IMG/VR virus record: IMGVR_UViG_2724679538_000004 | Location: 45,799-109,798 of that record | Direction: 5' to 3' (one strand) | DNA: 64,000 bases | From: a virus | Taxonomy: Duplodnaviria > Heunggongvirae > Uroviricota > Caudoviricetes | Shown here: one piece after another, positions 28,973 through 46,496 of the stretch | How positions within the stretch are numbered: position 1 is the first letter of the stretch | How the letters are laid out: each line of letters opens with the position of its first letter | Position numbers and translations under genes: made by a program | Notes under the pieces: model-generated | The model's input: the letters and a program-made list of their open reading frames with translations, nothing else | Databases searched by the model: none | What the model was told of the DNA's origin: nothing

Positions 28973-29100
28973 CGGTTGCAACTTATTGATAATGGCGGTC
29001 ACAATTTGATTCTTTTCTATAAGAATCCGTTGATCGCCACTACTCCCCTTCCATACCTGCAACCACATCCTTAAATATCAATTAGTTATAGTTGTTTATA

Positions 29101-29124
29101 CCAATAAGAAAACAACTAAATAAC
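29101..29124 (+). promoter_or_regulatory. promoter/operator family motif (variant)
   Basis: CCAATAAGAAAACAACTAAATAAC; no convincing gene downstream. Confidence 0.3.
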
Positions 29125-29313
29125 AGATCAACGAAATGTCAATGCTTTCGCCCGATTTGGTCTATAAAATTGACGTTTTCACACATCACTTCTTATACCC
29201 GCAATCCTACGCAGCAGACAGCGCCACAGCGTCCAATTTTCACCACAGATGACCCAACAACTACCAATAAAAACACACGCTCAAAATCGCTCCCGTTGCG
29301 TTACACAACCATA

Positions 29314-29356
29314 TAAACAACTTGTTTTCAGGCATAACAAAACAACTAAATAACAC
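29314..29356 (+). promoter_or_regulatory. promoter/operator family motifs (TAAACAACTTGTTTTCAGG and CATAACAAAACAACTAAATAACAC)
   Basis: Immediately upstream of the A/C-rich noncoding tract. Confidence 0.35.
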
Positions 29357-29900
29357 ATATGCCATTCCCCAAAACAACCAACCTCTTTATGGCAGGCTAC
29401 CGAAAAGACCCACCTCTTCTTCCCAGGCTACCGGACAACCAACCTAACTTTCACAGGCAATTCGAAACCTCCATACGCGCGATACCCACGACACGCCATT
29501 CCCCAAATAGCGAAGAACCACCGAAACCCCAACGAAGCTTGTAACCGCAAGGATTTCCTCAATCCCAAAAGACACGAAACAGAACATTCGAGGGAAACGC
29601 CATTACCCAATACACGAATAACTACAAAAGCCTTTCACGCACTCCATACAAGCAACTCAAACACAATAACGAAAGGAATCGCCCACCTGCCATTACTCCA
29701 TACACGGAGAAGAACAATCACCAAAACGTCGAGAACAACCCAGAGAAGAACCACCGCAAAACGAACGAAACCATATAAACCGACAGAGAGAACTACACAC
29801 CCAATTCACCAACAGAAATAGTCGCCGTATAGAACGTTCAGGGAGGAGTGAGTATTAACGCCTATAGAGAGCTTGAGACAGATAAAACACGAAGAAAACA
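29357..29900 (+). other. A/C-rich, G-poor noncoding tract with dispersed GCCATT(A/C)C(C/T)C...ACACG repeats (candidate untranslated transcript)
   Basis: No credible ORF on either strand; composition skew visible by eye; bounded by promoter-like motifs upstream and a hairpin/T-run downstream. Confidence 0.35.
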
Positions 29901-29946
29901 CAACATGTATAACGGAGAAGCCAGGTATGTATAAGTGGGGAGTGGA

Positions 29947-29968
29947 GGAGGGGTGTCGCCTCCTTTTT
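29947..29968 (+). terminator. terminator-like hairpin plus T-run
   Basis: GGAGG-GGTGTCG-CCTCC then TTTTT. Confidence 0.45.
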
Positions 29969-30032
29969 CGTATTTATTCAACTCCTGATTTTATCCCCCC
30001 GTAAAACCCCTACGGTCAGCCTTCGGTCCATA

Positions 30033-30173
30033 CAGGGAAAAGGTTGCATCCCGCTACAGAAACGGCTGGGTTGCCTTCGGGGAACGGCTGGAGGTTTTCA
30101 GGGAAACGGTCGAGTTGCCTGTGTGGGTTTCGGGAAAAGGCTCGATGCCGGTTCAGGAACGGTGGCGTACCGG
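30033..30173. repeat. about six tandem imperfect ~22-bp repeats of (C)AGGGAAA(A/C)GG type (iteron-like)
   Basis: CAGGGAAAAGG, CGGGGAACGG, CAGGGAAACGG, CGGGAAAAGG, CAGGAACGG read in series. Confidence 0.55.
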
Positions 30174-30475
30174 TATAGCGAGAGGGAGAGTTGCGGCTAC
30201 CCACCTGTAATGTGCGGGAAGAAGGGAGACTCTCACGTATAGGCGAACCTACTTCCCGCTGGATTCCCTCTGAATGCCCAGCTACAGCGTAATTGTGCCA
30301 GACAGTCCGCGGGTCACAATCGATTTCAGTAGGTTTTCGGGGAGAGGATTATTCTGCCCACCAGCTCCCTGCGGCCAGTAAATCAGAATAATGTAAAAAG
30401 TGCCCACGGTACTGAACCTGAAAAGTCACTACTAAAACTGCATTTACCGGAATAAAACTCTTTTTCACCTATGTG

Positions 30476-30518
30476 TTATTGCGATAATAACACCAACGAG
30501 AAAACAAGTTGTTTACGG
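30476..30518 (+). promoter_or_regulatory. promoter (-10-like GCGATAAT) plus operator CGAGAAAACAAGTTGTTTACGG
   Basis: Read directly. Confidence 0.45.
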
Positions 30519-30525
30519 AGTGGTA

Positions 30526-32503: not shown

Positions 32504-32776
32504 TTATATCATTTTTGCGAGCTTATTCATTTTGGTGAAGTCAATTGGCAATTCGGCCAAAGGTATCAAATAGTCTTTTTGTGCCCAGAAGTTTGGAGAT
32601 CTGCCCACTACATACGAAAGCCGATAAGCGTCTTCATCGGTAATCGGCTTTCTTTGTTCTAGTATAGCTTCAGCATAGTCGATACTAACCGCCATGCTGC
32701 GAGCCAATAATTCAACCCCAATACCGTAATCGTCATAAATGGCATCAAGAAATTTTTTCACATCAAGTTGGGACAT
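32504..32776 (-). CDS. XRE-type helix-turn-helix DNA-binding protein (putative regulator)
   Basis: LARSMAVSIDYAEAILEQRKP resembles an HTH motif; lone minus-strand gene among plus-strand cassettes. Confidence 0.45.
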   Translation of the reverse strand: MSQLDVKKFLDAIYDDYGIGVELLARSMAVSIDYAEAILEQRKPITDEDAYRLSYVVGRSPNFWAQKDYLIPLAELPIDFTKMNKLAKMI

Positions 32777-33490: not shown

Positions 33491-33539
33491 CTGAGAAGAG
33501 GGCCAGAAACGGCCCTTTCTCTATAGCCACCAGCTGCCG

Positions 33540-33657
33540 CAGGGAAATTTTCAGAAACGGCGAGGAACGCATTCATGAACCGACGGGAAACGGCCAAGAT
33601 TTTTTCGGGAAACGGCTGCATTCGCCTTTATGTAGAAAAACATCGGGAAGCTGGTGG
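33540..33657. repeat. second array of GGGAAACGG-type repeats, flanked by CCACCAGCT / AGCTGGTGG inverted repeat
   Basis: CAGGGAAA, CGACGGGAAACGGCC, CGGGAAACGGCTG, CGGGAAGCTGG read in series. Confidence 0.5.
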
Positions 33658-34082
33658 AATCCAACCAGCGGTTGTCGGACAGGTGAGCGCGGAAAATAAT
33701 GATGACTTTCGTCGCCTGAGACATACAGATTTCTTTCATAGCGTAATCACATACGTGATTAAGTAGTGTGATTATGTGAAAAATCACGCGCACATAATAC
33801 GCGAGCGGATAAAGAACAACACAAAATGCCGATCCGCGCCGACAAATAAACGCGGATCACATAGCAAGACTAATAACCAATGATTAGCCATACATTATAA
33901 CGCAATATAACGCGATTTAAGCGCGTTAATGTGTTAAGTAATGGGTATGTACTGGTAAGGATGTAAAAGCGCGTCTATGGTGTTATTTTGGCGCTTATTT
34001 TTATGTTGTTGGAGTGAGTCAAAGACAATAAAAAAACGCGCCATTGATGGCGCGTTATTGTGGAAGTATTGGAAACGAAAAA

Positions 34083-34101
34083 AGCGCCCATAGTGGGCGC
34101 T
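34083..34101 (-). terminator. terminator for minus-strand gene
   Basis: Hairpin AGCGCCCATAGTGGGCGCT preceded on the plus strand by an A-run; an identical hairpin lies at 34354-34370. Confidence 0.5.
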
Positions 34102-34105
34102 CGAT

Positions 34106-34336
34106 TTATTTATGTAAACTGATTTCAAATCCCATTTCTACAAACGCTTTCAGCATTAAAAATATATCAGCGTCGTTCACCTCAGCTTTTTTGCGCTCCT
34201 GGTCGCTCAATAAGTCAATTTTGCGCGTCGTTTCATCTATAAGCTCGACTGCGCGCCCAGCGTAACCAGCGATCCCAGCGATCCGATTTACATAATATTC
34301 ATTGTGGACGTTAACGCCAGCGATAAGAATAAACAT
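34106..34336 (-). CDS. hypothetical small protein
   Basis: 76-aa ORF flanked by the duplicated hairpins. Confidence 0.4.
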   Translation of the reverse strand: MFILIAGVNVHNEYYVNRIAGIAGYAGRAVELIDETTRKIDLLSDQERKKAEVNDADIFLMLKAFVEMGFEISLHK

Positions 34337-34353
34337 GATTAAGCTCCTTAAAA

Positions 34354-34370
34354 GCGCCCATAGTGGGCGC
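34354..34370 (-). terminator. terminator for minus-strand gene (duplicate hairpin)
   Basis: GCGCCCATAGTGGGCGC. Confidence 0.45.
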
Positions 34371-34383
34371 CAGATTCCATTAA

Positions 34384-35034
34384 TTACGCTTTGAAAGCAT
34401 CAGCCAGATAGTTATAGAAATCATTTTTAATAAAGCGATATTGCTGCGTACCAGCTTTTGCGCTTCCCATTCCTTTGACTTTCTCAACAAGTCCAAGACG
34501 TTCACAAAGATTAATTAGCTGATTAGCTTGAGTATAGCCAGCGTCAAGTTTAATCTCACACGCTTTTTTAGCTTCATTCATTAAATCGAAAACAGCGCCA
34601 TTTGTGAACGTCTCGATCTCGTCGTTAATCATATCGATTAAAGCGAATACACGAGATCCTGACATATCAGCGACGGAATATACACATGTTCCAGCTTTAA
34701 TAGATTTAACAAGATAAACCAGCTTTTCCAGTGAATAACTATTAGTCATAGCGTCACGGAAAAATACTTCTGGGGCTTGTTTACTTGCTTTAATCGCATA
34801 GTAGAAAACAGAACATAATTTATCGTCTTCTACTGCGTTAACCACGTTGTTGATGAAGTAAGCAAGCTTAGTGGTCGCAGCTTGCATATTTGCTTTGTCT
34901 GCTTTAGTGTGCGTACCATTTTTATAATGTTCGTTATATGTTTGAGTTGCCAGATCTGCTTTTTCGCGCAGCTCATCGGATACAATGGAAGCAGCTTCAA
35001 TGATGGATTTTTTAGAAATGATAATGTTAGCCAT
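34384..35034 (-). CDS. hypothetical protein
   Basis: 216-aa ORF. Confidence 0.5.
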   Translation of the reverse strand: MANIIISKKSIIEAASIVSDELREKADLATQTYNEHYKNGTHTKADKANMQAATTKLAYFINNVVNAVEDDKLCSVFYYAIKASKQAPEVFFRDAMTNSYSLEKLVYLVKSIKAGTCVYSVADMSGSRVFALIDMINDEIETFTNGAVFDLMNEAKKACEIKLDAGYTQANQLINLCERLGLVEKVKGMGSAKAGTQQYRFIKNDFYNYLADAFKA

Positions 35035-35317
35035 GATAATTTTCCTTATGTAAATTTAAAATTTATTGTCGTTAGCGTCTTCGCTTTCGACGAGTTCAAT
35101 TATCGATACGCGAAAAAAGATTTCAAGTGTTTTTTTAAATTTTTTTGCAGGGACGAAAGTCCTAGAAATAAAAGCGAGATCGTCGAAGGTGTTCCCTAAA
35201 TAAATAATCGATTCCGGCTTTTGACCTTATATATATTTAGGTTATTTAATTTATAGAATATAAAGAAGTGACATGAAAAATAATAACCGGACTTAGCCGG
35301 TTATTAACCTTATAGAT

Positions 35318-35626
35318 TTATTGGACAGACTCTACAGCCTTACGATTGGTGTCAAATAGCGCATCAACGAACTGTGCCGATGACTCGCTAGATTCGCAAT
35401 CCAACATTGCCCGTTCTTCATTTGCCACTTTCTTACACAGTTCCACATTCTCACCTATCGCTTTTCCTGCTTTTACGGCTGCCGAAAATTGATACATGCA
35501 AACTGATACATTCTGAGACGTTGAGCACACGTCATTCATCAGCGACTGAATGACAGGCTTATAGTCCATTGCATTTGCCGCAACTGAGCAAAGTAAAAAT
35601 AATGGTGGTAACAATATCGATTTCAT
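35318..35626 (-). CDS. small exported (periplasmic) protein
   Basis: Signal peptide MKSILLPPLFLLCSVAANA. Confidence 0.5.
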   Translation of the reverse strand: MKSILLPPLFLLCSVAANAMDYKPVIQSLMNDVCSTSQNVSVCMYQFSAAVKAGKAIGENVELCKKVANEERAMLDCESSESSAQFVDALFDTNRKAVESVQ

Positions 35627-35629
35627 AAC

Positions 35630-36226
35630 TCAAAAAGGCAAAATTCGTTCAACCCAATCGAACAAAACAACTATTTTTCTACCGTTCTCGACACGTAGTG
35701 TAACCTGACAAGCATCTGCGCCTGCTGACACCCCCTCAATTTCACGGCCATCCGCCATGTACACCCTTATAGATTTGTTTGCTTTATGGGCCTGGTTGCA
35801 AATTGCAAAAAAATCACGGCGTGATGGCCGATTGTCAACATAATCAGGGTGAACTGTTAATCGACCTTTGAAATCGTGAGCGATACCGTCAACCACACCT
35901 GATTCAATTGTACTAATGCGTTCAAGTGGAAGCCTTATACGATTTTCTTTGTCAAAAGGGGCTGGGCAAAGATCAACTTTGTTACGAGATGGCATGAGAC
36001 CATAAACGTACATGCAAAACGCCTGGCCATCTTCGAGAGTGGCCCTTACAGGAATTTGTTCTCTGCGCCAGAACATCAGGAGGTTTTCAATATTCTTATA
36101 ATCTCGCGGCCAGACCTCCGCTGGCACGCCGTAGGTGATGTCTTTAGTCGTCATGTCATTATAAAGTTGTTGGCAATATATCCATTGTACCATCCCAGGT
36201 TGTGAAGACCCGATATGTTTTAGCAT
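35630..36226 (-). CDS. hypothetical protein (start uncertain because it overlaps the upstream gene)
   Basis: 198-aa ORF. Confidence 0.45.
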   Translation of the reverse strand: MLKHIGSSQPGMVQWIYCQQLYNDMTTKDITYGVPAEVWPRDYKNIENLLMFWRREQIPVRATLEDGQAFCMYVYGLMPSRNKVDLCPAPFDKENRIRLPLERISTIESGVVDGIAHDFKGRLTVHPDYVDNRPSRRDFFAICNQAHKANKSIRVYMADGREIEGVSAGADACQVTLRVENGRKIVVLFDWVERILPF

Positions 36227-36578
36227 CGTTTTGTTTTAGCCTTATTTCTCGCTCCATCCGAGAAGGGTTAAATGCGCAAAGCCCTGAGCTTTCAATTGAT
36301 GTGCCAACTATCCACTCACCTTCATTAAGAAAGAAGGTGACTTTTTCTCCTGGTTTCAACTTGGCGGATGTCTCACCATTGATAAAAATGGAGGCATAAC
36401 AGCCTGAGCCTACAAGACCTTTGTCTCGAACAATCGTTAATGTTGATACATTTGGCGTCTGGTATTTGAAGATTCTTTCTTGAGGCGCAACTTTCGCTTT
36501 TGAAACTGAGATAGAGGAGGATGAACACCCAATTAGAGAGGCCCCAAACATTAAAATAATGAATTTTGTAGCTTTCAT
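36159..36578 (-). CDS. lipoprotein (putative)
   Basis: MKATKFIILMFGASLIGCSSS signal with L-I-G-C lipobox. Confidence 0.55.
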   Translation of the reverse strand: MKATKFIILMFGASLIGCSSSSISVSKAKVAPQERIFKYQTPNVSTLTIVRDKGLVGSGCYASIFINGETSAKLKPGEKVTFFLNEGEWIVGTSIESSGLCAFNPSRMEREIRLKQNDAKTYRVFTTWDGTMDILPTTL

Positions 36579-36602
36579 AGTACCTAACATATTAATTCAT
36601 CG

Positions 36603-37145
36603 TTATTTATTGATTAGTGTTCTCTTGTAAATATCTACCAGAAGATCGTCTCTTTTAATATCGGTGCAGATATCATCGAATGTCAATGTTTTCGATAATA
36701 TGCTTGCATTGTACTTTTCTATGAAACATTTTAGCGCCAGGTGGTCCTTGAAAATGAATGAAAAACCATATGATGAATCGCTATCATCTATGTATCTTTT
36801 GGCTTTAGGATAACCGTATAAATTTGAATGTAATTCTAATTTACCAGGCGACACACCATCACATGAATTCATAATCGAGAACAAACACGATAAATTGTAT
36901 GGGTAAAATACAATACCGCAATTGGTTTTTACCCCCTCAATATCTTTAACATATATATAGTGTTCATAATCGTCTTTATATGAAGCCTTAAGCTTATATC
37001 TGATTAGTTTATGTTCGCCATTTTGTATTGGAGATAGATATGCCTGTTTTGCTAAACAAGATTTTTTTGACTTATAATATGTATGAATGCATTCTTTAAT
37101 CTGCCTTGCACTCAAATAGTTATTGTCAATATTTAGCTTTCCCAT
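36603..37145 (-). CDS. hypothetical protein in an AT-rich segment
   Basis: 180-aa ORF; local base composition visibly more AT-rich than surrounding genes. Confidence 0.45.
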   Translation of the reverse strand: MGKLNIDNNYLSARQIKECIHTYYKSKKSCLAKQAYLSPIQNGEHKLIRYKLKASYKDDYEHYIYVKDIEGVKTNCGIVFYPYNLSCLFSIMNSCDGVSPGKLELHSNLYGYPKAKRYIDDSDSSYGFSFIFKDHLALKCFIEKYNASILSKTLTFDDICTDIKRDDLLVDIYKRTLINK

Positions 37146-37464
37146 ATAGCTCTATAAACTGAAACCAAAACGCTTGTTAATAGCCTACAAACCTCGTTCA
37201 GCCAATCAAGTTTTTTTCTCAGCCGGAGGCTTGCGCTTATAAAAATGTGATCAATATCACGCATTGTCGCTCACTACATACACGTGAACTCTCACAATCT
37301 TCTAGTTACGCCTGATTGATTTATAGCCTTTTTGGTGAAAACAAGAGCAAATTGTGAATTTTATTTAATATCAGAGGATAATTACTTCAACAACATCATT
37401 GATGTGCCTCTTTTGACAAGTAAGCACATCATAATCTTAGTAATTAGAGGAAGAAGATAGAACG

Positions 37465-37761
37465 TTACGGTAGCCTGCTAAGGATTTCGTCCAGATCTTC
37501 CTTAGTCAAATTTGAGTTTTCATAAATCTGCATAATCCTTTCGCGAGCTTTAGCAGAAGCTTTTGCAGTTGCGCCCAAAGAAGAAGCAATTTTGTCAAAC
37601 TCGGCCATCGGCATCTTTTCAAGTACAACATTGATGATTTCAGACTTTGACAGTTTTAGGTTTTTGTCTTTCAGTTTGGCTTTAAATTTTGTTAGTTTGT
37701 TGTTCGCCTGTTCAGTTAATGCGACCTGACAATACGTTGTTTTTTTCTCGCTCATAGTCAA
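37465..37761 (-). CDS. small DNA-binding-like protein (possible ribbon-helix-helix)
   Basis: N-terminal strand-then-helix pattern (TTYCQVALTEQANNKL); ATGA-coupled to the helicase gene. Confidence 0.35.
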   Translation of the reverse strand: MTMSEKKTTYCQVALTEQANNKLTKFKAKLKDKNLKLSKSEIINVVLEKMPMAEFDKIASSLGATAKASAKARERIMQIYENSNLTKEDLDEILSRLP

Positions 37762-39317
37762 TCTCGTTTCAAAATCCCAAAATCAAAAGTACCACCTACT
37801 GGCAAAACGCCTTCCGCAAAACCTGGTGTTGTATCGATAATATGCTTCCGTTCGTAAGAATGAGACAGTAAGTATTTATTACTAACGTCAATAAAATCAC
37901 TGATAAAGCACACATTGGCTTGATTTTTCTTGGCTCGAAGGCCGCGACCAACACGTTGCCTCATCTCAACTTCGGCCTTTCCACCACCAGCCAGAATCAC
38001 TGCCCCAACACTCGGTACATCAACACCAACATCCAGAATAGTCGACCCTATTAAAACATCTATTTCGCCGGACGCTAAACTATTCAATTTTGCTTGCCTT
38101 GTCGATTGGTTGGACTCGCCATAAATGAAGTCAACTTTCAGACCGGACTCCTTCATCATTTCCATTAAGATCTGCCCGTGGCGCTTAAGGCGAACTAGAG
38201 TCATACAGTTCAGAGAATGCTTTTTATACATTAACGCTTCTCGAACTATGGCCTCGTTACGACTTAGATTATATACGATCCCCAACTGATAAGCCTTTTG
38301 GTAGGCGGTACTCATGCCAACCCTAAAATTTAGATGCTTATTAGCGAGTTCAGCCTTGATTCGTGCCTCGTCTGGAATGTAGGCAATTTTATGATAGAGG
38401 AAGTATGGTTTGGCCAAAATACCTTTATCAATTAGATATTTTTCTGTGACCTTGATTTCTATGCGACCAGCCACGGCCATCAGGCGCATGTTGGCTTCGG
38501 TAGAGTCCTTCATGAAAGGGGTTGCAGTCAGCGCAAGACGATAATCTGCGTTCACACAAAGACGGGCGATATCATAGAAGTTGGAGCCGGAAGACTCATG
38601 GGCTTCTTCAAGAATGAGAAGAGAAACGCTAGAAAGAAAGCGCTTTACCAAATCTCGGCGTTTTAGATGGTAGTTTTTCTTATCTGCCGATGCGTCTCGT
38701 GGCGGCTCTTCAAGGAAGCTTGCCAATGTCTGTACCGTGGCGACGTTGATATGACGTGAAACCTGAAACTCACCAGATCCAATTACTCCAACTTTCTGAC
38801 CTTTTAGCCATGATTCGCCATTTTCTGCACGGTAATCGATAGATTTCTGAAAGTTTTCTGCCATTTGATACATCAGAACAGAACGAGTGGTTAAAAATAG
38901 CGTCATGCGGCCAATTCTTGCAGCTGCTTTACATGCAACGTTAGATTTCCCGCCACCAGTTGCGATCTGCGCAATCATCATCCCTTCTCGTACTAGAGTT
39001 TCTACCGTCTGATCCTGATATGCATAATCTGGGTTATATGGGAAAGGGTTAACAACTGGGTTTGGTTTCCCAAGTGCAGGGGCTTTGTCCTTTCGAATAT
39101 GTAAGCATTTGATGCCTGCTTTATTCAGATTCGAGGCTACAGGCTTCGCGAATCCAGCGGGGAACGAGTTTTTGCTCCAGTTGAACATGGTGCTTGTGCC
39201 TTTCCAATCACCAGCTTCAACTTCATAGCTCAGCATCTCTTGCACGAGTCGTTTTACATTGTCATCAGCGCCAGAAATCAGTGCGTTTACAGCATTAGAT
39301 ACAATCCGAACTGTCAT
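37758..39317 (-). CDS. superfamily-2 DEAD/DEAH-type helicase
   Basis: Motif I ATGGGKS, motif II LEEAHE, motif III TATP, motif VI QRVGRGLR. Confidence 0.8.
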   Translation of the reverse strand: MTVRIVSNAVNALISGADDNVKRLVQEMLSYEVEAGDWKGTSTMFNWSKNSFPAGFAKPVASNLNKAGIKCLHIRKDKAPALGKPNPVVNPFPYNPDYAYQDQTVETLVREGMMIAQIATGGGKSNVACKAAARIGRMTLFLTTRSVLMYQMAENFQKSIDYRAENGESWLKGQKVGVIGSGEFQVSRHINVATVQTLASFLEEPPRDASADKKNYHLKRRDLVKRFLSSVSLLILEEAHESSGSNFYDIARLCVNADYRLALTATPFMKDSTEANMRLMAVAGRIEIKVTEKYLIDKGILAKPYFLYHKIAYIPDEARIKAELANKHLNFRVGMSTAYQKAYQLGIVYNLSRNEAIVREALMYKKHSLNCMTLVRLKRHGQILMEMMKESGLKVDFIYGESNQSTRQAKLNSLASGEIDVLIGSTILDVGVDVPSVGAVILAGGGKAEVEMRQRVGRGLRAKKNQANVCFISDFIDVSNKYLLSHSYERKHIIDTTPGFAEGVLPVGGTFDFGILKRD

Positions 39318-39361
39318 AAATCTCTTTCCTTCGTGCCTTTTGTGTGTTATTTGGCTATCAT

Positions 39362-39385
39362 AATAAGTAAGTGCTTATCTAATGG
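39362..39385. promoter_or_regulatory. copy of recurrent palindrome in a divergent intergenic region (AATAAGTAAGTGCTTATCTAATGG)
   Basis: Lies between the minus-strand helicase and the plus-strand ParB-like gene. Confidence 0.35.
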
Positions 39386-40080
39386 ATTGTATCAGCAAAA
39401 TGGATGTGAAAATCACGATTTTGCAGGTTGAAGTGGCCAACCTGCGTCCAAATTCATGGAACACCAACTCAGTAGGTGCTCAAAACTTCGAAAAACTGAA
39501 AGGATCTATCGAAAAATTGGGCTTTTTTAAGCCTATTTTGGCGCGTGAGCTTAATGACGGCATTTATGAAATCCTCGGCGGCGAACATCGCTGGCGTGCG
39601 GCCATTGAACAAGGAATTTCAACGGTTCCAGTGCTATCGGTTGGCAAAATTAGCGACTTAGTAGCGAAACAGATGTCACTCGTGGACAACGAACGCTACG
39701 GCGAAGACGATCAGATTGCTTTGCAGCGCTTTATTGAAGAAATTCAGTCTGAACTCGATTACCAGTTGTCAGAAATTGCCCCTTATGACGATGAAATTTC
39801 TATGGTTCTTGCAAAAGAGGCTGCAATTGACCTCGAAGCTCTTGAGGCACTGTCGCGTGGGGAGGATGAGCCTGTAGATACTGACAAGCGTGAAAAAATC
39901 GAACGCGCCGGAACAGATCATCAGACCATGCGTTTCAAAGTTACCTTTGATGCGTCAGATCGTGTTGCCGACACAATAAAAAACATCATCAAAGAACAAG
40001 CAATTAACACTGGCAATGAAATGGAGAACGCTGGTGAGGCTTTGGTGTGGCTGGTCGACTACTACAAGGAGCGTATGTAA
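39382..40080 (+). CDS. ParB-like nuclease-domain protein 1
   Basis: ILGGEHRWRAA matches the ParB/Srx box (GxxRxxA). Confidence 0.65.
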   Translation: MDCISKMDVKITILQVEVANLRPNSWNTNSVGAQNFEKLKGSIEKLGFFKPILARELNDGIYEILGGEHRWRAAIEQGISTVPVLSVGKISDLVAKQMSLVDNERYGEDDQIALQRFIEEIQSELDYQLSEIAPYDDEISMVLAKEAAIDLEALEALSRGEDEPVDTDKREKIERAGTDHQTMRFKVTFDASDRVADTIKNIIKEQAINTGNEMENAGEALVWLVDYYKERM

Positions 40081-40748
40081 TGACCAAAAAGTTTGAAATC
40101 GTATATCGCAATCCGGCAGATCTCATTCCTTACGAGATGAATGCCAAAAAGCATGATGAACAGCAGATCCGAGATCTGGCCGCAGCCATTAAAAAGCGCG
40201 GATTTGACCAGCCAATTACGGTCGATAAGAACGACGTAATTATTACTGGCCACGGCCGCCGTGAGGCTGCAATTTTTGCTGGGCTTGAGCGCGTACCAGT
40301 TATTGTTCGCGATGATCTGAGTGATGACGAGGTTCGTGCGAAGCGCCTTGAAGATAACCGACTCGCCAGCATTGATTACGATGCAATTAAGCTACAGAAA
40401 GAGCTTGAGTCGCTTGTTCTGGACGATATCGAGGTTTTCGGCTTTGAAGAGCGAGAGTTGAATGTTCTCGTTGGCAGCATGACTGAGGAAATGGATACCG
40501 ACTCGTTAGTTATCGATCTGGGCGAAGAAACCAAACGACAGAAGGATGAGCACACCGAAATCAGTCGTGAAGTTGCAGCGGAAGAAGTGCGCGTTGTCGA
40601 CGTATTGGGCTTTAAAACGCTCCCTGCTGGCTCTGCCATTGTTGTTGGTGATTTGCTTGCCCACATGGAAGAAATGACTGGAGAAAGCGGGGTAGACGCA
40701 TTTGTGGCATATGCGGAGAAGATCTCTTCCGGGGAGATGACTGCATGA
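40080..40748 (+). CDS. ParB-like nuclease-domain protein 2
   Basis: ITGHGRREAAIFAG ParB box; TAATG coupling with AAGGAG RBS. Confidence 0.65.
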   Translation: MTKKFEIVYRNPADLIPYEMNAKKHDEQQIRDLAAAIKKRGFDQPITVDKNDVIITGHGRREAAIFAGLERVPVIVRDDLSDDEVRAKRLEDNRLASIDYDAIKLQKELESLVLDDIEVFGFEERELNVLVGSMTEEMDTDSLVIDLGEETKRQKDEHTEISREVAAEEVRVVDVLGFKTLPAGSAIVVGDLLAHMEEMTGESGVDAFVAYAEKISSGEMTA

Positions 40749-41383
40749 GCAAATACATCATCAACGTATCGTTTCAGACTCGCGTAAATAAAACCACGCG
40801 CACGTTGGAAATCGCCGAGTCGTTCGGGCTTGGCCTTGACGAAAAAGAGTGGACGCTTTACGACAATCTGGAGCTGGAAGTTAAGCAGGGCGATGTAGTG
40901 TACATCACCGGCCAATCCGGTTCAGGCAAATCAGTTGTGCTGCGCGAACTGCAACGCCAGATGAAAGATGAAGGGCTTTCTGTGGCCTCCATCGATGATT
41001 TTACATTCGACAATGATGTTAACGTCATCGACCAGCTAGGGAAAACAACCAGCGAAGCGCTGGGGCTGCTGTCTATGGCCGGATTGAATGACGCCTATCT
41101 CTTTGTGCGCAAACCTTCCGAAATGTCTGACGGTCAGAAATATCGTCTCAAGATCGCCAAGCTAATTGAGTCAGGCGCAAAAGTGTGGGCTGCGGACGAG
41201 TTCGGTGCTGTTCTTGATCGTGTAACGGCGCAGGTCGTGGCGTCCAATCTACAGCGTGCAGCCCGTAAAGTTGGGGCGACGGTGATGGTTGCGACAACTC
41301 ATGAGGACCTTAAAAACGCTCTTCGTCCTGATATGCAGATCACTAAGCACTATAAAGAGCGAGTGAAGGTGGAATATGCCTGA
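40745..41383 (+). CDS. small ABC-type ATPase
   Basis: Walker A GQSGSGKS, signature-like SDGQKYR, Walker B AADEFG, H-loop TTHE; ATGA coupling. Confidence 0.6.
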   Translation: MSKYIINVSFQTRVNKTTRTLEIAESFGLGLDEKEWTLYDNLELEVKQGDVVYITGQSGSGKSVVLRELQRQMKDEGLSVASIDDFTFDNDVNVIDQLGKTTSEALGLLSMAGLNDAYLFVRKPSEMSDGQKYRLKIAKLIESGAKVWAADEFGAVLDRVTAQVVASNLQRAARKVGATVMVATTHEDLKNALRPDMQITKHYKERVKVEYA

Positions 41384-41630
41384 TTTGAAGATTGTAGAGC
41401 TGAAGCCATCGAAAGAGGATGACAATAACAATGTTGAGGTCATCCGCTTGCTGGAAGAAGCACTCCAGTACGCCAGAGAAGGCAAATCCCAGAGTCTGGC
41501 GCTGCTGATGATCAATAACGACGGCAGTGTCATGGATTGCTGGCATAACGGTGGGCGTCCTTACGTCATGGTTGGGGCGATGGAATCGCTTCGCCTGGAC
41601 TTCATCAATGCCAATATAGAGCGCAGGTGA
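41376..41630 (+). CDS. hypothetical small protein
   Basis: 84-aa ORF overlapping the ATPase gene. Confidence 0.4.
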   Translation: MPDLKIVELKPSKEDDNNNVEVIRLLEEALQYAREGKSQSLALLMINNDGSVMDCWHNGGRPYVMVGAMESLRLDFINANIERR

Positions 41631-41635
41631 TCGAC

Positions 41636-42526
41636 ATGACAGACATCATCATCAAACGCTACCGCCTTGAAGAGTTTCCGCGTCATCTGGACTTTCTGGA
41701 GCGAATGACTGTCACAAAGGGGACTGTAGAGGACTGGCACGCTCTTAAGTCGCTTCACTACAAAACTGACGGCAAACCTTTCGCACCAACTTATTATCGC
41801 TGCGAACTGGATGGCCGTCTGGTGGGCGTCGTGGTAATGGCTTACCCGAAACTTTTGCTGGCACCTCGCCATCGCATGTTTCCTAAGTTGAAACCAACCA
41901 CTAACACCACCGTGGCGAACCAGTACTGGGGGCGATACGTGAATAACAACTTTGCGGTGATCAGTCGCTCAGTTGTGGATACTCAGTACCGTGGCGTTGG
42001 CGTCTCTTATCGAATGATTAACCTGGTTAGCAGGATGCATGATCGGCCAATAATTGAGATCCAGTCCTCAATGAGCAAATACAATCCCTTCGCCATGAAA
42101 GCAGGGTTCAAGTTCATCCGCCCTGAGCGACCGAAGAGCTATGAAAGTGCACTGCGTGTGTTCCAGCGCCATTTCCGCTCCGACCCGGGAGATAACGAGG
42201 CGATCGTCAAAGAGTTGTTCGCAATGAGCGAGTCCCGTCGTCGCCGTGCACTGCGTGATCTGGTGGCGGACTACCACAAGAACAGTTCCCTGGCAAAAGC
42301 TGGGCGGAATCGTGGCACGACGATTCAGGACATTGCCGACAGTCTCGTGGACGAGGCCAGCATAGTGAAGCTGCTCAAGGACATTCACAACCTGAGCTTT
42401 ACGTCTCCGTTGTATGGTGTGTACCGAAACCCTGACTTTGGCCGTCGACTGCCTGATTCGCTGCCACTGCTGGCATTCGACAAACAACCTTTGGATAAAC
42501 CGTTAGAAATTGCTTTACCGGCATAA
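41636..42526 (+). CDS. GNAT-like acyltransferase-fold protein (putative)
   Basis: VVDTQYRGVGVSYRMINLV resembles GNAT motif A (Q/R-x-x-G-x-G/A). Confidence 0.45.
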   Translation: MTDIIIKRYRLEEFPRHLDFLERMTVTKGTVEDWHALKSLHYKTDGKPFAPTYYRCELDGRLVGVVVMAYPKLLLAPRHRMFPKLKPTTNTTVANQYWGRYVNNNFAVISRSVVDTQYRGVGVSYRMINLVSRMHDRPIIEIQSSMSKYNPFAMKAGFKFIRPERPKSYESALRVFQRHFRSDPGDNEAIVKELFAMSESRRRRALRDLVADYHKNSSLAKAGRNRGTTIQDIADSLVDEASIVKLLKDIHNLSFTSPLYGVYRNPDFGRRLPDSLPLLAFDKQPLDKPLEIALPA

Positions 42527-44921: not shown

Positions 44922-46496
44922 ATGGAATTGGATGACAAACAAATTAAAGATTTAGTGGCAAGACGCCACCCTGAATACGAAAAGAAAAAGACACATTGGG
45001 ACTTCCTCGCCAGCACTTACGCTGGTGGGCGTGGTTGGTTCGCTGACAACATCTTTCGTTATTTCAAAGAAGGCGATCAGGAGTTTAAGGAACGTCTTGA
45101 GCGTGCTTACCGCTTCAATCACACCCGTGAAGTAGTAAACCTCATTAATAAATACCTGTTTAAAGAAGATATCCATCGAAACACAGAGGAAGCGCCTGAG
45201 CAGATCCGTAACTTCTGGAAAAGAGCGACACGCCAGAATGCATCTATCGACTCATTTATGGCTGCTATCGATTTGCAATCGTCAATCTATGGCCGTATTT
45301 GGGTTGTTGTAGATAGCACAATGAATGGTGATGTGGAGTCAGTCGCTGATGAGAAGAGGAAGAATGCACGTGCCTATGCCTACTGGATTTCCCCTCAACA
45401 AATGCTGGATGTGGCATGGGATGATGACGGCAATATGTTATGGGCGTTAATTGTGGAAGTTGCTCGTGATGATGCAGATCCATTTACTTCAACCGGTCAG
45501 GAATACCAACGTTATCGTCTGTGGACACAAAACGAGTGGTATCTGTTCCGTGAAGAAGTTAAGAAGAGCGCTGGCGGAGCCGGTCGCCGTCAGGCAAAAG
45601 TTATTTTAGAGGATAGCGGTGAACATAATCTCGGCGTAGTTCCCGTGTTTCCTGTTGATTGTATTGGAGAAAGCGAATCACCGTATTTCAGTCCATCGTT
45701 AATCGATGACATCGCATATCTTGATCGTGCTGTAGCCAACTATTTGTCTAACCTTGATGCCATTATTCAGGATCAAACTTTCAGTCAGTTGGCTATCCCC
45801 GTGCAGTCGATGATGCCTGGTGATGAAAGCCATAGCAAGGTGCTGGAAATGGGCACAAAACGAGTTTTCACCTACGATTCTGAAGGTGGAAACCAGCCGT
45901 TTTATCTTTCTCCAGATCCAAAACAAGCTCAGATGATCATCACTACGATTAAGACGGTGATTAATGAAATCTACCATTCAGTTGGTGTTGCTGGCGAACG
46001 AACGAAGCAGGATAACGCACAGGGAATCGATAACTCTTCTGGTGCCGCTAAGATGTATGACTTCCAGCGAGTTAACAGTCTGCTGGTCACAAAAGCAGAG
46101 CGTCTTGAAAGGGCAGAGCGACAAATTATGCAACTTGTCGCTAAATGGATGGGAGTCGAGCTGGATGAAGACCATTCTCTAATTGCTTACCCTGAGAGTT
46201 TTGATATTCGCGGTCTTACTGACGAATTTGCTGTTGCTGAGAAGCTGTCAATGCTTCAAGCGCCTGATTCTGTACGTCGTCGTCAGATGGAAATGCTCAT
46301 CGAGAAGATTTTCCCGAATATCACTGAGGCGATGAAAAAGGAATTTGATAAAGATCTCTTGAATTTTCCGCCAAAAAATGATCTAAATACCCTTGAAAAT
46401 AAGTCAGTACTTACTTATCATCGAGATACAGCTCAAGAAACCGAGCAAGATCAACCCCGAGGGAGTGGGGACTCATCTACTCAAGAAACCGAGTGA
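44922..46496 (+). CDS. portal protein (putative)
   Basis: 524 aa; position between terminase and scaffold. Confidence 0.6.
   Translation: MELDDKQIKDLVARRHPEYEKKKTHWDFLASTYAGGRGWFADNIFRYFKEGDQEFKERLERAYRFNHTREVVNLINKYLFKEDIHRNTEEAPEQIRNFWKRATRQNASIDSFMAAIDLQSSIYGRIWVVVDSTMNGDVESVADEKRKNARAYAYWISPQQMLDVAWDDDGNMLWALIVEVARDDADPFTSTGQEYQRYRLWTQNEWYLFREEVKKSAGGAGRRQAKVILEDSGEHNLGVVPVFPVDCIGESESPYFSPSLIDDIAYLDRAVANYLSNLDAIIQDQTFSQLAIPVQSMMPGDESHSKVLEMGTKRVFTYDSEGGNQPFYLSPDPKQAQMIITTIKTVINEIYHSVGVAGERTKQDNAQGIDNSSGAAKMYDFQRVNSLLVTKAERLERAERQIMQLVAKWMGVELDEDHSLIAYPESFDIRGLTDEFAVAEKLSMLQAPDSVRRRQMEMLIEKIFPNITEAMKKEFDKDLLNFPPKNDLNTLENKSVLTYHRDTAQETEQDQPRGSGDSSTQETE

Follow-up and report, generated by a model that had tools for sequence, protein, structure and literature searches.

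Why should a viral genome that is read almost entirely from one strand carry a compact run of genes on the other? The locus in question lies within a 64,000-nucleotide stretch (the window) of IMG/VR virus record IMGVR_UViG_2724679538_000004 (Caudoviricetes; positions 45,799 to 109,798 of that record), in which eight consecutive minus-strand open reading frames (ORFs) stand head to tail at 34106-39317 and nearly all other large ORFs are on the plus strand. A preceding sequence-only reading had correctly pointed out this arrangement and regarded it as a horizontally acquired island. In the present study, we favor a different interpretation, with a probability of roughly 0.6: the block represents a conserved leftward gene set of an SSU5-type phage-plasmid, including a lysogeny-expressed module around a translational repressor. 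The most interesting content of the block is an ORF overlooked in that reading (35630-36154), a full-length homologue of FljA (Flag1_repress), which is an orphan, is conserved in the group and is transcribed in the lysogens of a relative. The eight genes are lettered A to H in the order of their coordinates (Table 1), H being the helicase gene and D the FljA homologue.

Distribution and synteny of the block

Judged from its DNA matches, the element is an SSU5-type phage-plasmid, akin to SSU5, Cyrano/pLF82, pMT1 and pHCM2. The phage matches of the region and its flanks included Salmonella phage SSU5 and the Escherichia phages Cyrano (= pLF82), CMS-2020a and PhiR41_1, and the plasmid matches comprised about 770 non-mobilizable plasmids of about 110 kb each in Klebsiella, Escherichia, Enterobacter, Yersinia, Salmonella and Citrobacter. 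Identity across the region was at most about 89% for every record in the phage, plasmid and complete E. coli genome collections. The region is present in about 2% of complete E. coli genomes, among which the best match to its variable middle was 85.6% identical. By these comparisons, the element is a new variant within a well-populated SSU5-type group.

Several observations bear on whether the block is island or backbone. First, the blocks of SSU5 (SSU5_119-124), Cyrano/pLF82 (CYRAN_112-118), pMT1 and pHCM2-type elements have the gene order and orientation of the window, with identities of 91-94% for H, 84-98% for B and 79-82% for D; the amino acid identity of H to pMT1, Klebsiella and SSU5-type elements is likewise 91-94%, with a ratio of nonsynonymous to synonymous substitution rates (dN/dS) of about 0.02. 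Second, one order recurs, namely the ParB-like genes and, divergently from them, the helicase, G, an optional slot, the FljA-like gene, a spacer of about 300 bp, B and small genes. This order was found in Y. pestis pMT1, in Klebsiella SSU5-type plasmids and in Klebsiella plasmids of two more lineages, whose replicon clusters differ (rep_cluster_2469 and rep_cluster_2470); together with the SSU5 type, these make up the three lineages compared here. All block genes have homologues in these two clusters, with identities of 67-72% for H, 47-53% for B, 36% for G and 26-35% for the FljA-like protein. Third, tblastn against PLSDB detected H (at least 60% identity) in about 825 plasmids and D in 831, with nearly the same split among genera for helicase and FljA-like gene, respectively (Klebsiella 346/341, Escherichia 228/229, Enterobacter 92/92, Yersinia 62/62); the same search found E in 415 plasmids, C in 259 and F in only 24 of the roughly 830 related plasmids.

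The synteny in three lineages and the matching counts and genus splits of the helicase and FljA-like genes lead us to regard the block as a whole as backbone, and H, G, D and B are, on their alignments, syntenic and co-diverged in all three. The proposal of an acquired island, which was said to fail if the block were fully conserved as core genes in all relatives and of normal composition, is thus largely contradicted by the synteny comparison. The suspicion of horizontally acquired modules was justified in part, since F, C and a 204-bp cassette are patchy, whereas H, G, D and B are present in about 825-831 plasmids and in three lineages. Alignment points to three true insertions or deletions only: F with its spacer, C, and the 204-bp cassette. 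Compared with the orthologous blocks of SSU5, Cyrano, pMT1 and the pHCM2 type, the window has C and, together with its spacer, F in addition, carries its own allele of E and is without the 204-bp cassette. Low GC content alone is not a mark of acquisition because the backbone gene B is also low (37.8%, against a window mean of 45.6% and a standard deviation of 3.8%).

The orphan FljA homologue

D matched PF03614 with an E-value of 1.6e-83 and a score of 279.1 bits (cut-off 24), residues 5-171 aligning with positions 1-170 of the 170-position profile, and 16 of 16 diverse D homologues scanned also matched this family. The protein is 34% identical (E 4e-32) to an E. coli FljA whose gene directly follows those of a Hin-type invertase and a flagellin, and 37% identical over its full length to Salmonella FljA (P0098). 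Conserved FljA motifs sit at both ends of D: canonical FljA proteins, either of the Salmonella fljBA-hin locus or of E. coli flagellin islands, belong to the same family, are of similar length (174-179 aa, compared with 174 aa) and share with D the motifs D-x-TYG-AE-WPR-Y at the N terminus, RDFF-IC, VYM-DGR-IEG and FDWV-RI. Unlike canonical FljA, D is accompanied by neither an upstream flagellin gene, a lipoprotein gene being found there, nor an invertase; it is encoded beside a helicase and a lipoprotein in a phage-plasmid operon, and is also present in non-flagellated hosts. tblastn revealed no flagellin or Hin gene anywhere in the window (best Hin match, E 0.2), and SSU5-like records were not among the matches of a flagellin tblastn over phage genomes. 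D is under purifying selection (dN/dS 0.07-0.13 in comparisons including pMT1 and Klebsiella).

The characterised FljA proteins block the translation of fliC, and plasmid-borne fljA(z66) turned motile E. coli non-motile (PMC2652032). A close parallel to D in this respect is FljA(z66) of the linear plasmid pBSSB1 in S. Typhi, which is likewise extrachromosomal and acts post-transcriptionally on chromosomal fliC (PMC2652032); pBSSB1, however, pairs FljA(z66) with its own flagellin gene fljB(z66), and D is an orphan of a different clade. SSU5 (SSU5_121) and pHCM2-type records are already labelled "repressor of phase 1 flagellin" or "repressor of fliC", and we found no paper linking SSU5, pHCM2 or pMT1 with FljA or flagellin. 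No solved structure of FljA was found in the PDB by sequence.

Transcription in Cyrano lysogens

Expression in lysogens was assessed from RNA-seq of E. coli LF82 including Cyrano (PMC9928086, S1 Table), using normalised levels in overnight LB medium with a local background of 9.8. Under this condition, the homologue of G (CYRAN_117), listed as a moron, reached 114 (12 times the background), the helicase homologue (CYRAN_118) 46, the slot lipoprotein, which is not homologous to E, 29, and the FljA-like homologue 18. On the log2 scale, the FljA-like gene rose from 4.2 in overnight LB to 7-8.1 in fresh medium and inside macrophages, and the slot lipoprotein reached 9.4 in these environments; over the conditions, the helicase ranged from 5 to 8.4 and the G homologue from 6.3 to 9.9. 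In most conditions, the ParB-like genes and the homologues of B and A did not rise, or barely rose, above the detection floor. The lytic cycle of Cyrano is not induced in macrophages (PMC9928086). Judged from these levels, the plasmid state is thus one in which the right-hand unit is transcribed in this relative and the left-hand unit (B, A) is silent.

A model of the block and its difficulties

Herein, we propose that the block consists of two transcription units. The first would begin in the divergent promoter region (about 39318-39381), end at the terminator at 35306-35281 and encode, in order, the XPB/UvsW-like helicase, the 96-aa protein tightly coupled to it, a slot whose cargo here is F with its spacer and the lipoprotein, the FljA-family protein and the inserted periplasmic protein. 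The genes from F to C probably belong to one transcription unit because neighbouring genes are separated or overlap by 2-24 nt and a single conserved terminator follows C. D, which starts 4 nt past the lipoprotein stop, would be translationally coupled to the lipoprotein gene. The second unit would have its own conserved promoter region and encode the 216-aa and 76-aa proteins; its genes would be separated and followed by copies of one hairpin, where small cassettes may be gained and lost. Homology to FljA suggests that D would bind an mRNA leader, probably via Sm/Hfq-like domains, and block its translation. In flagellated hosts, fliC mRNA is tentatively the likeliest single target of D, at somewhat less than even odds, and a main target other than fliC is somewhat less likely; such estimates are rough and do not sum exactly to one. 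The repression of fliC would be partial or conditional, rather than an off-switch.

Several points weigh against this model. The evidence for expression in lysogens comes from a relative, Cyrano, whose slot cargo differs from that of the window, and read-through across the 319-bp spacer upstream of F has to be assumed. The recurrent Hfq/LSM matches of the C-terminal half of D are all sub-threshold; they would fit an RNA-binding protein and are not proof. A blastn-short search of the window with the promoter, 5' untranslated region and start region of E. coli K-12 fliC returned only chance 9-12-mers. D is intact in 341 Klebsiella and 62 Yersinia (Y. pestis) plasmids and is kept in the Klebsiella-only lineages, and a second or different target must therefore exist. 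D alleles are also far more diverse than their flanks, as between the Klebsiella plasmids NZ_CP028997.1 and NZ_CP097705.1, in which B is 100% and D 74% identical; a conserved host target would not obviously demand such diversity. Finally, S. Typhi CT18 carrying pHCM2 still expresses H:d. LF82, which carries Cyrano and transcribes the D homologue, is motile (PMC7460008). Because of these two strains, strong constitutive silencing of fliC is unlikely.

Some of these observations also support the most serious alternative, in which D is a control or specificity determinant that regulates an RNA of the phage-plasmid itself or a non-flagellar RNA of the host, flagellin not being its target. We consider this unlikely, while weighing it in full. 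D is core in every lineage, including the Klebsiella-only lineages and Y. pestis pMT1, and shares one operon with the helicase; carriers of the D homologue stay motile; and the FljA family is tiny and mostly borne on phage-plasmids. Moreover, on sequence comparison, D behaves as a swapped, hypervariable allele within a nearly identical backbone, and the same allele classes are found in different genera, as in immunity-type modules. Against this alternative, every characterised member of the family acts on fliC (PMC2652032), no candidate target was found, and the boxes conserved upstream of B show no covariation with D, lineages that share both boxes having FljA-like proteins only 23-36% identical. 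In addition, the dN/dS of D reaches 0.33 in the Klebsiella-only rep_cluster_2470, compared with 0.04-0.16 for its neighbours (helicase 0.04, B 0.05), which looks like relaxed constraint where flagellin is missing.

A further possibility concerns the origin of the family. A profile search of 1.84 billion representatives yielded only 29 matches and about six full-length clusters (50% identity), at least three of them phage-plasmid lineages: one of Salmonella FljA, one of the SSU5 type, two of Klebsiella phage-plasmid types and two metagenomic. In a crude, midpoint-rooted neighbour-joining tree, canonical FljA is a single clade among phage-plasmid clades, a topology compatible with capture of the flagellar repressor from a phage-plasmid, although not proof of it. 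The resemblance of Hin to phage invertases provides a parallel for this idea. It is conceivable, though in our judgement rather improbable, that the family was at first a core post-transcriptional regulator in SSU5-related phage-plasmids, of which the flagellar repressor is a captured offshoot, and that the hypervariable FljA-like allele and the neighbouring exported protein form a specificity module with RNA targets in place of fliC or additional to it. Such a module could serve immunity, exclusion or the control of host surface and motility.

SSU5-type phage-plasmids are common in E. coli, Salmonella (pHCM2), Klebsiella, Enterobacter and Y. pestis (pMT1). If the D homologues do tune flagellin translation, these elements would alter motility, the innate recognition of flagellin via TLR5 and NLRC4, and sensitivity to flagellum-dependent phages; no paper describing lysogenic conversion through a phage-plasmid FljA homologue was found in the literature. 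If flagellin is not the target, a well-known family of flagellar regulators would have an unrecognised main home and function in phage-plasmids.

Exported proteins and cargo

The sequence-only reading put forward the lipoprotein and the signal-peptide protein as candidates for superinfection exclusion; on this view, they belong to an acquired island and keep the phage receptor masked or blocked. We regard this explanation as doubtful, and the exclusion role of the exported proteins as a guess; they are nevertheless candidates for lysogenic conversion. The sequence features on which it was built are real. The N terminus of E (MKATKFIILMFGASLIGC) has a charged n-region, a hydrophobic h-region and the lipobox, and the lipobox Cys is invariant in nine homologues, as are two further Cys; the lipobox of homologues reads LTAC, ITAC, LSAC, LTGC or VAGC. 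The Cys is followed by Ser-Ser in E and by Gln, Ser or Phe in the homologues; the +2 residue is never Asp, which predicts sorting to the outer membrane. C begins, as claimed, with a signal peptide, MKSILLPPLFLLCSVAANA, followed by MDY, and its mature part carries four Cys.

The distribution of these proteins lends the exclusion proposal some further support. An exported protein adjoins the FljA-like gene in 6 of 8 relatives inspected, and the identity of the gene changes: an E-type lipoprotein occupies the slot between G and the FljA-like gene in the window, SSU5 and pMT1, and Cyrano has there an unrelated lipoprotein (Asp at +2, opposite strand) with a cytoplasmic ORF. That lipoprotein is well transcribed in lysogens, as noted above. 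A homologue of E on the opposite strand, 32% identical, was found in a Klebsiella plasmid, and the E family is old but fast-evolving, with identities of 32-86% among homologues, compared with more than 90% for the helicase. The distribution of F and C is truly patchy. C, which is cargo, lies exactly at the junction of the FljA-like stop with the terminator; SSU5 and Cyrano do not have it, and their flanks join directly. At the nucleotide level, C is 99% identical to E. coli relatives, compared with about 86% for its flanks, which points to a recent exchange. Relatives hold an identical C ORF but annotate a shorter start.

Other results argue against exclusion by an acquired island, beyond the backbone status of the whole block in three lineages. 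The dN/dS of E is about 0.06-0.1 and hence gives no sign of positive selection. Its AlphaFold2 model (pLDDT 72) is a transthyretin-like beta-sandwich, a generic fold that matched DUF4352-like proteins in BFVD, and known exclusion lipoproteins were absent from its structural matches in the fold searches, including BFVD. E resembles T5 Llp and the Cor family in being a small, phage-encoded, predicted outer-membrane lipoprotein, and belongs to a block part with homologues transcribed during lysogeny in a relative, but has no similarity to them in sequence or fold. The proposal also leaves the coupled FljA homologue unexplained. The weakest explanation, that the block is a lytic-phase DNA replication and repair module whose small genes are fillers without a plasmid-state role, draws on the UvsW/XPB-like helicase adjoining ParB-like nuclease genes and on the silence of the B and A homologues in lysogens, and is very improbable because transcription of the helicase, G and FljA-like homologues exceeds the background in Cyrano lysogens without induction, the adjoining ParB-like genes being at the floor, and because exported proteins and a putative RNA-binding repressor are not replication functions.

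F is regarded as true cargo because it is AT-rich and sporadic. It was rightly singled out as AT-rich, representing the lowest-GC 543-bp stretch in the 64 kb by GC profile. Together with its 319-bp spacer, F is missing from SSU5, Cyrano and most E. coli relatives, and in F-less relatives merely 26-60 bp separate G from the lipoprotein gene. The spacer contains a hairpin just past the G stop (37401-37430, -16.1 kcal/mol, without a T-run) and, upstream of F at 37245-37258 on the minus strand, a palindrome that reads GTGAT-ATTG-ATCAC in the window and GTGAC-ATTT-GTCAC in pEA11_2 and pMTY13926; that both arms changed together suggests an operator or small hairpin travelling with F. A likeness of F to YgaC/DUF2002 (PDB 2g7j), which has no known function of its own, was noted at 16% identity. 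F, however, is without a Pfam match, has extra N- and C-terminal helices and fails sequence-level membership in that family. Homology of F to Cyrano CYRAN_116 was considered and not found; the slot of one Klebsiella plasmid holds F-like and CYRAN_116-like ORFs together with a 118-aa signal-peptide protein. Sequence gave no clue to the functions of E, F or B, for which searches of Pfam (E<=10), NCBIfam and PDB profiles yielded no matches.

Table 1. Positions of genes and signals in the leftward block (window coordinates)
Feature	Position	Strand	Description
H	37758..39317	-	519-aa superfamily 2 (SF2) helicase, XPB/Rad25/UvsW type (Pfam, PDB profiles)
G	37465..37755	-	96-aa protein coupled tightly to H (TGA-CT-ATG); phrog_1466
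Spacer accompanying F	37146..37464	-	35.7% GC; hairpin and short palindrome GTGATATTGATCAC
F	36603..37145	-	180-aa cytoplasmic ORFan, AT-rich (31.3% GC); 24 plasmids
E	36159..36578	-	139-aa predicted outer-membrane lipoprotein, beta-sandwich domain; lipobox LIGC, Ser at +2
D	35630..36154	-	174-aa FljA-family (Flag1_repress) protein; PF03614
C	35318..35626	-	102-aa Cys-rich, predicted secreted/periplasmic protein; phrog_9536; signal peptide ends ANA
Intrinsic terminator after C	35281..35306	-	Ends H-to-C unit; 10-bp stem and T-run, -12.1 kcal/mol
Conserved regulatory spacer upstream of B	35035..35280	-	Invariant boxes, promoter-like site, short leader hairpin
B	34384..35034	-	216-aa conserved backbone protein, strong ribosome-binding site; phrog_1513 (E 1e-138)
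Second copy of 27-nt hairpin repeat, between B and A	34350..34376	-	-14.1 kcal/mol
A	34106..34336	-	76-aa protein, small cassette gene flanked by the hairpin repeat; phrog_1585
First copy of hairpin repeat (34080-34106) and second terminator (34035-34056)	34035..34106	-	-15.5 and -14.6 kcal/mol

Helicase and its small partner

The assignment of H to the SF2 helicases stands. The protein scored above the Pfam cut-offs for ResIII (57.6 bits), DEAD (56.8 bits) and Helicase_C (50.7 bits), its nearest PDB relatives were XPBII (2.4e-13) and UvsW (2.2e-8), and its translation contains the Walker A motif ATGGGKS and motif II LEEAH. H is the first gene of the leftward operon and is divergent from the ParB-like genes beginning at 39382. 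Membership in a defence system was considered and rejected, since PADLOC gave only generic helicase-domain matches for H (PbeA and others) and none for the other seven genes.

G is conserved in all lineages at 36-71% identity. Two details reported for this gene need to be amended. Its junction with the helicase gene had been described as an ATGA coupling and is in fact the one given in Table 1, or TTGA if the start codon is TTG. The label of a ribbon-helix-helix (RHH) protein was not borne out, since no RHH family was detected by Pfam at E<=10 over five orthologues or by a PDB profile search; the hints that exist are sub-threshold, namely a match of the N-terminal half of G to PDB TTHA0139 (E 0.11) and a weak pairwise match to a CopG sequence (E 0.07). 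G is thus a possible DNA-binding protein, and its RHH assignment is unproven.

Beyond the helicase, the divergent operon at 39382-42526 encodes two ParB-like proteins with nuclease domains, along with an ABC-type ATPase, a small ORF and a protein of 299 aa that bears the annotation of an ATPase-acetyltransferase fusion in relatives. This operon is conserved in every lineage inspected and is silent in Cyrano lysogens.

The second unit and its signals

The terminator after C is conserved in 7 of 7 aligned elements. Downstream of it, the spacer before B contains two boxes, ATATATAAGG (35224-35233) and TTTATTTAGGnAACACCTTC (35185-35204), that are invariant across the three phage-plasmid lineages; the latter is unique within the window, and AAGG and CCTT form an inverted repeat about 35 nt apart. 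The boxed part of the spacer (35127-35280) is probably a regulator-binding region. It is followed by a promoter-like site, TTGAAA-16-GATAAT, at 35126-35099, which agrees with the consensus at 10 of 12 positions. A consensus RNA structure upstream of B comprised only the terminator and a small leader hairpin, with little covariation. TATAAGG was rejected as a phage-wide operator: 3 of its 5 matches in the window cluster at 35223-35773, but the motif shows no overall enrichment, 12 of 100 shuffles doing as well.

The intergenic DNA had been called AT-rich at two places, of which 37150-37460 is so (35.7% GC) and 33780-34100 is unremarkable (41.4% GC); the most AT-rich spacer is 35035-35317, with 30.4% GC. 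B is 84-98% identical within SSU5-type elements and 47-53% identical in the other two lineages. The small gene A is found in Cyrano, pMT1 and E. coli relatives, and SSU5 carries a 204-bp gene in its place.

The duplication of the hairpin AGCGCCCATAGTGGGCGC was also verified: there are exactly two copies in the window, at 34083-34100 and 34353-34370, inside a 27-nt direct repeat, and none of 100 shuffles had three or more matches. The second copy is followed by UUUU and then by the AAGGAG ribosome-binding site of A, and a T-run follows each of the terminators at 34035-34106. The duplicated hairpin marks the edge of a small gene cassette because a 204-bp gene, missing from the window, lies between the two copies in pEA11_2, pMTY13926 and p788309_2; by its predicted structure it is also a terminator or inter-cistronic stem. 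Rfam gave no match at the gathering score across the whole window, and its two sub-threshold matches were both on the tandem terminators.

Neighbouring regions of the window

Left of A lies a 615-bp gene-poor stretch (33491-34105), downstream of both flanking genes, which contains at least four minus-strand hairpins (33787-33803, 33830-33859, 34035-34056 and 34082-34102). Its sequence agrees with that of E. coli and E. albertii relatives at 96% identity, above the identity of adjacent genes, and one relative has a 153-bp ORF annotated within the counterpart.

Just left of the block, on the same strand and isolated among plus-strand genes, 32504-32776 encodes a 90-aa helix-turn-helix (HTH) protein, the counterpart of SSU5_116, which is annotated as "putative repressor-like protein"; it has a weak PHROG match to an HTH antitoxin family.

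Farther left, about 1.5 kb (28973-30520) is without an ORF of at least 75 aa. Its plus strand is strongly A+C-rich, with GC skew down to -0.47 and AT skew up to +0.57, and it contains the short repeats GCCATTCCCC and GGCTACCG at 29360-29700 and, at 30040-30170, five or six iteron-like GGRAACGG units at intervals of about 20 bp. A replication origin with iterons may lie here, or else a region of non-coding RNA.

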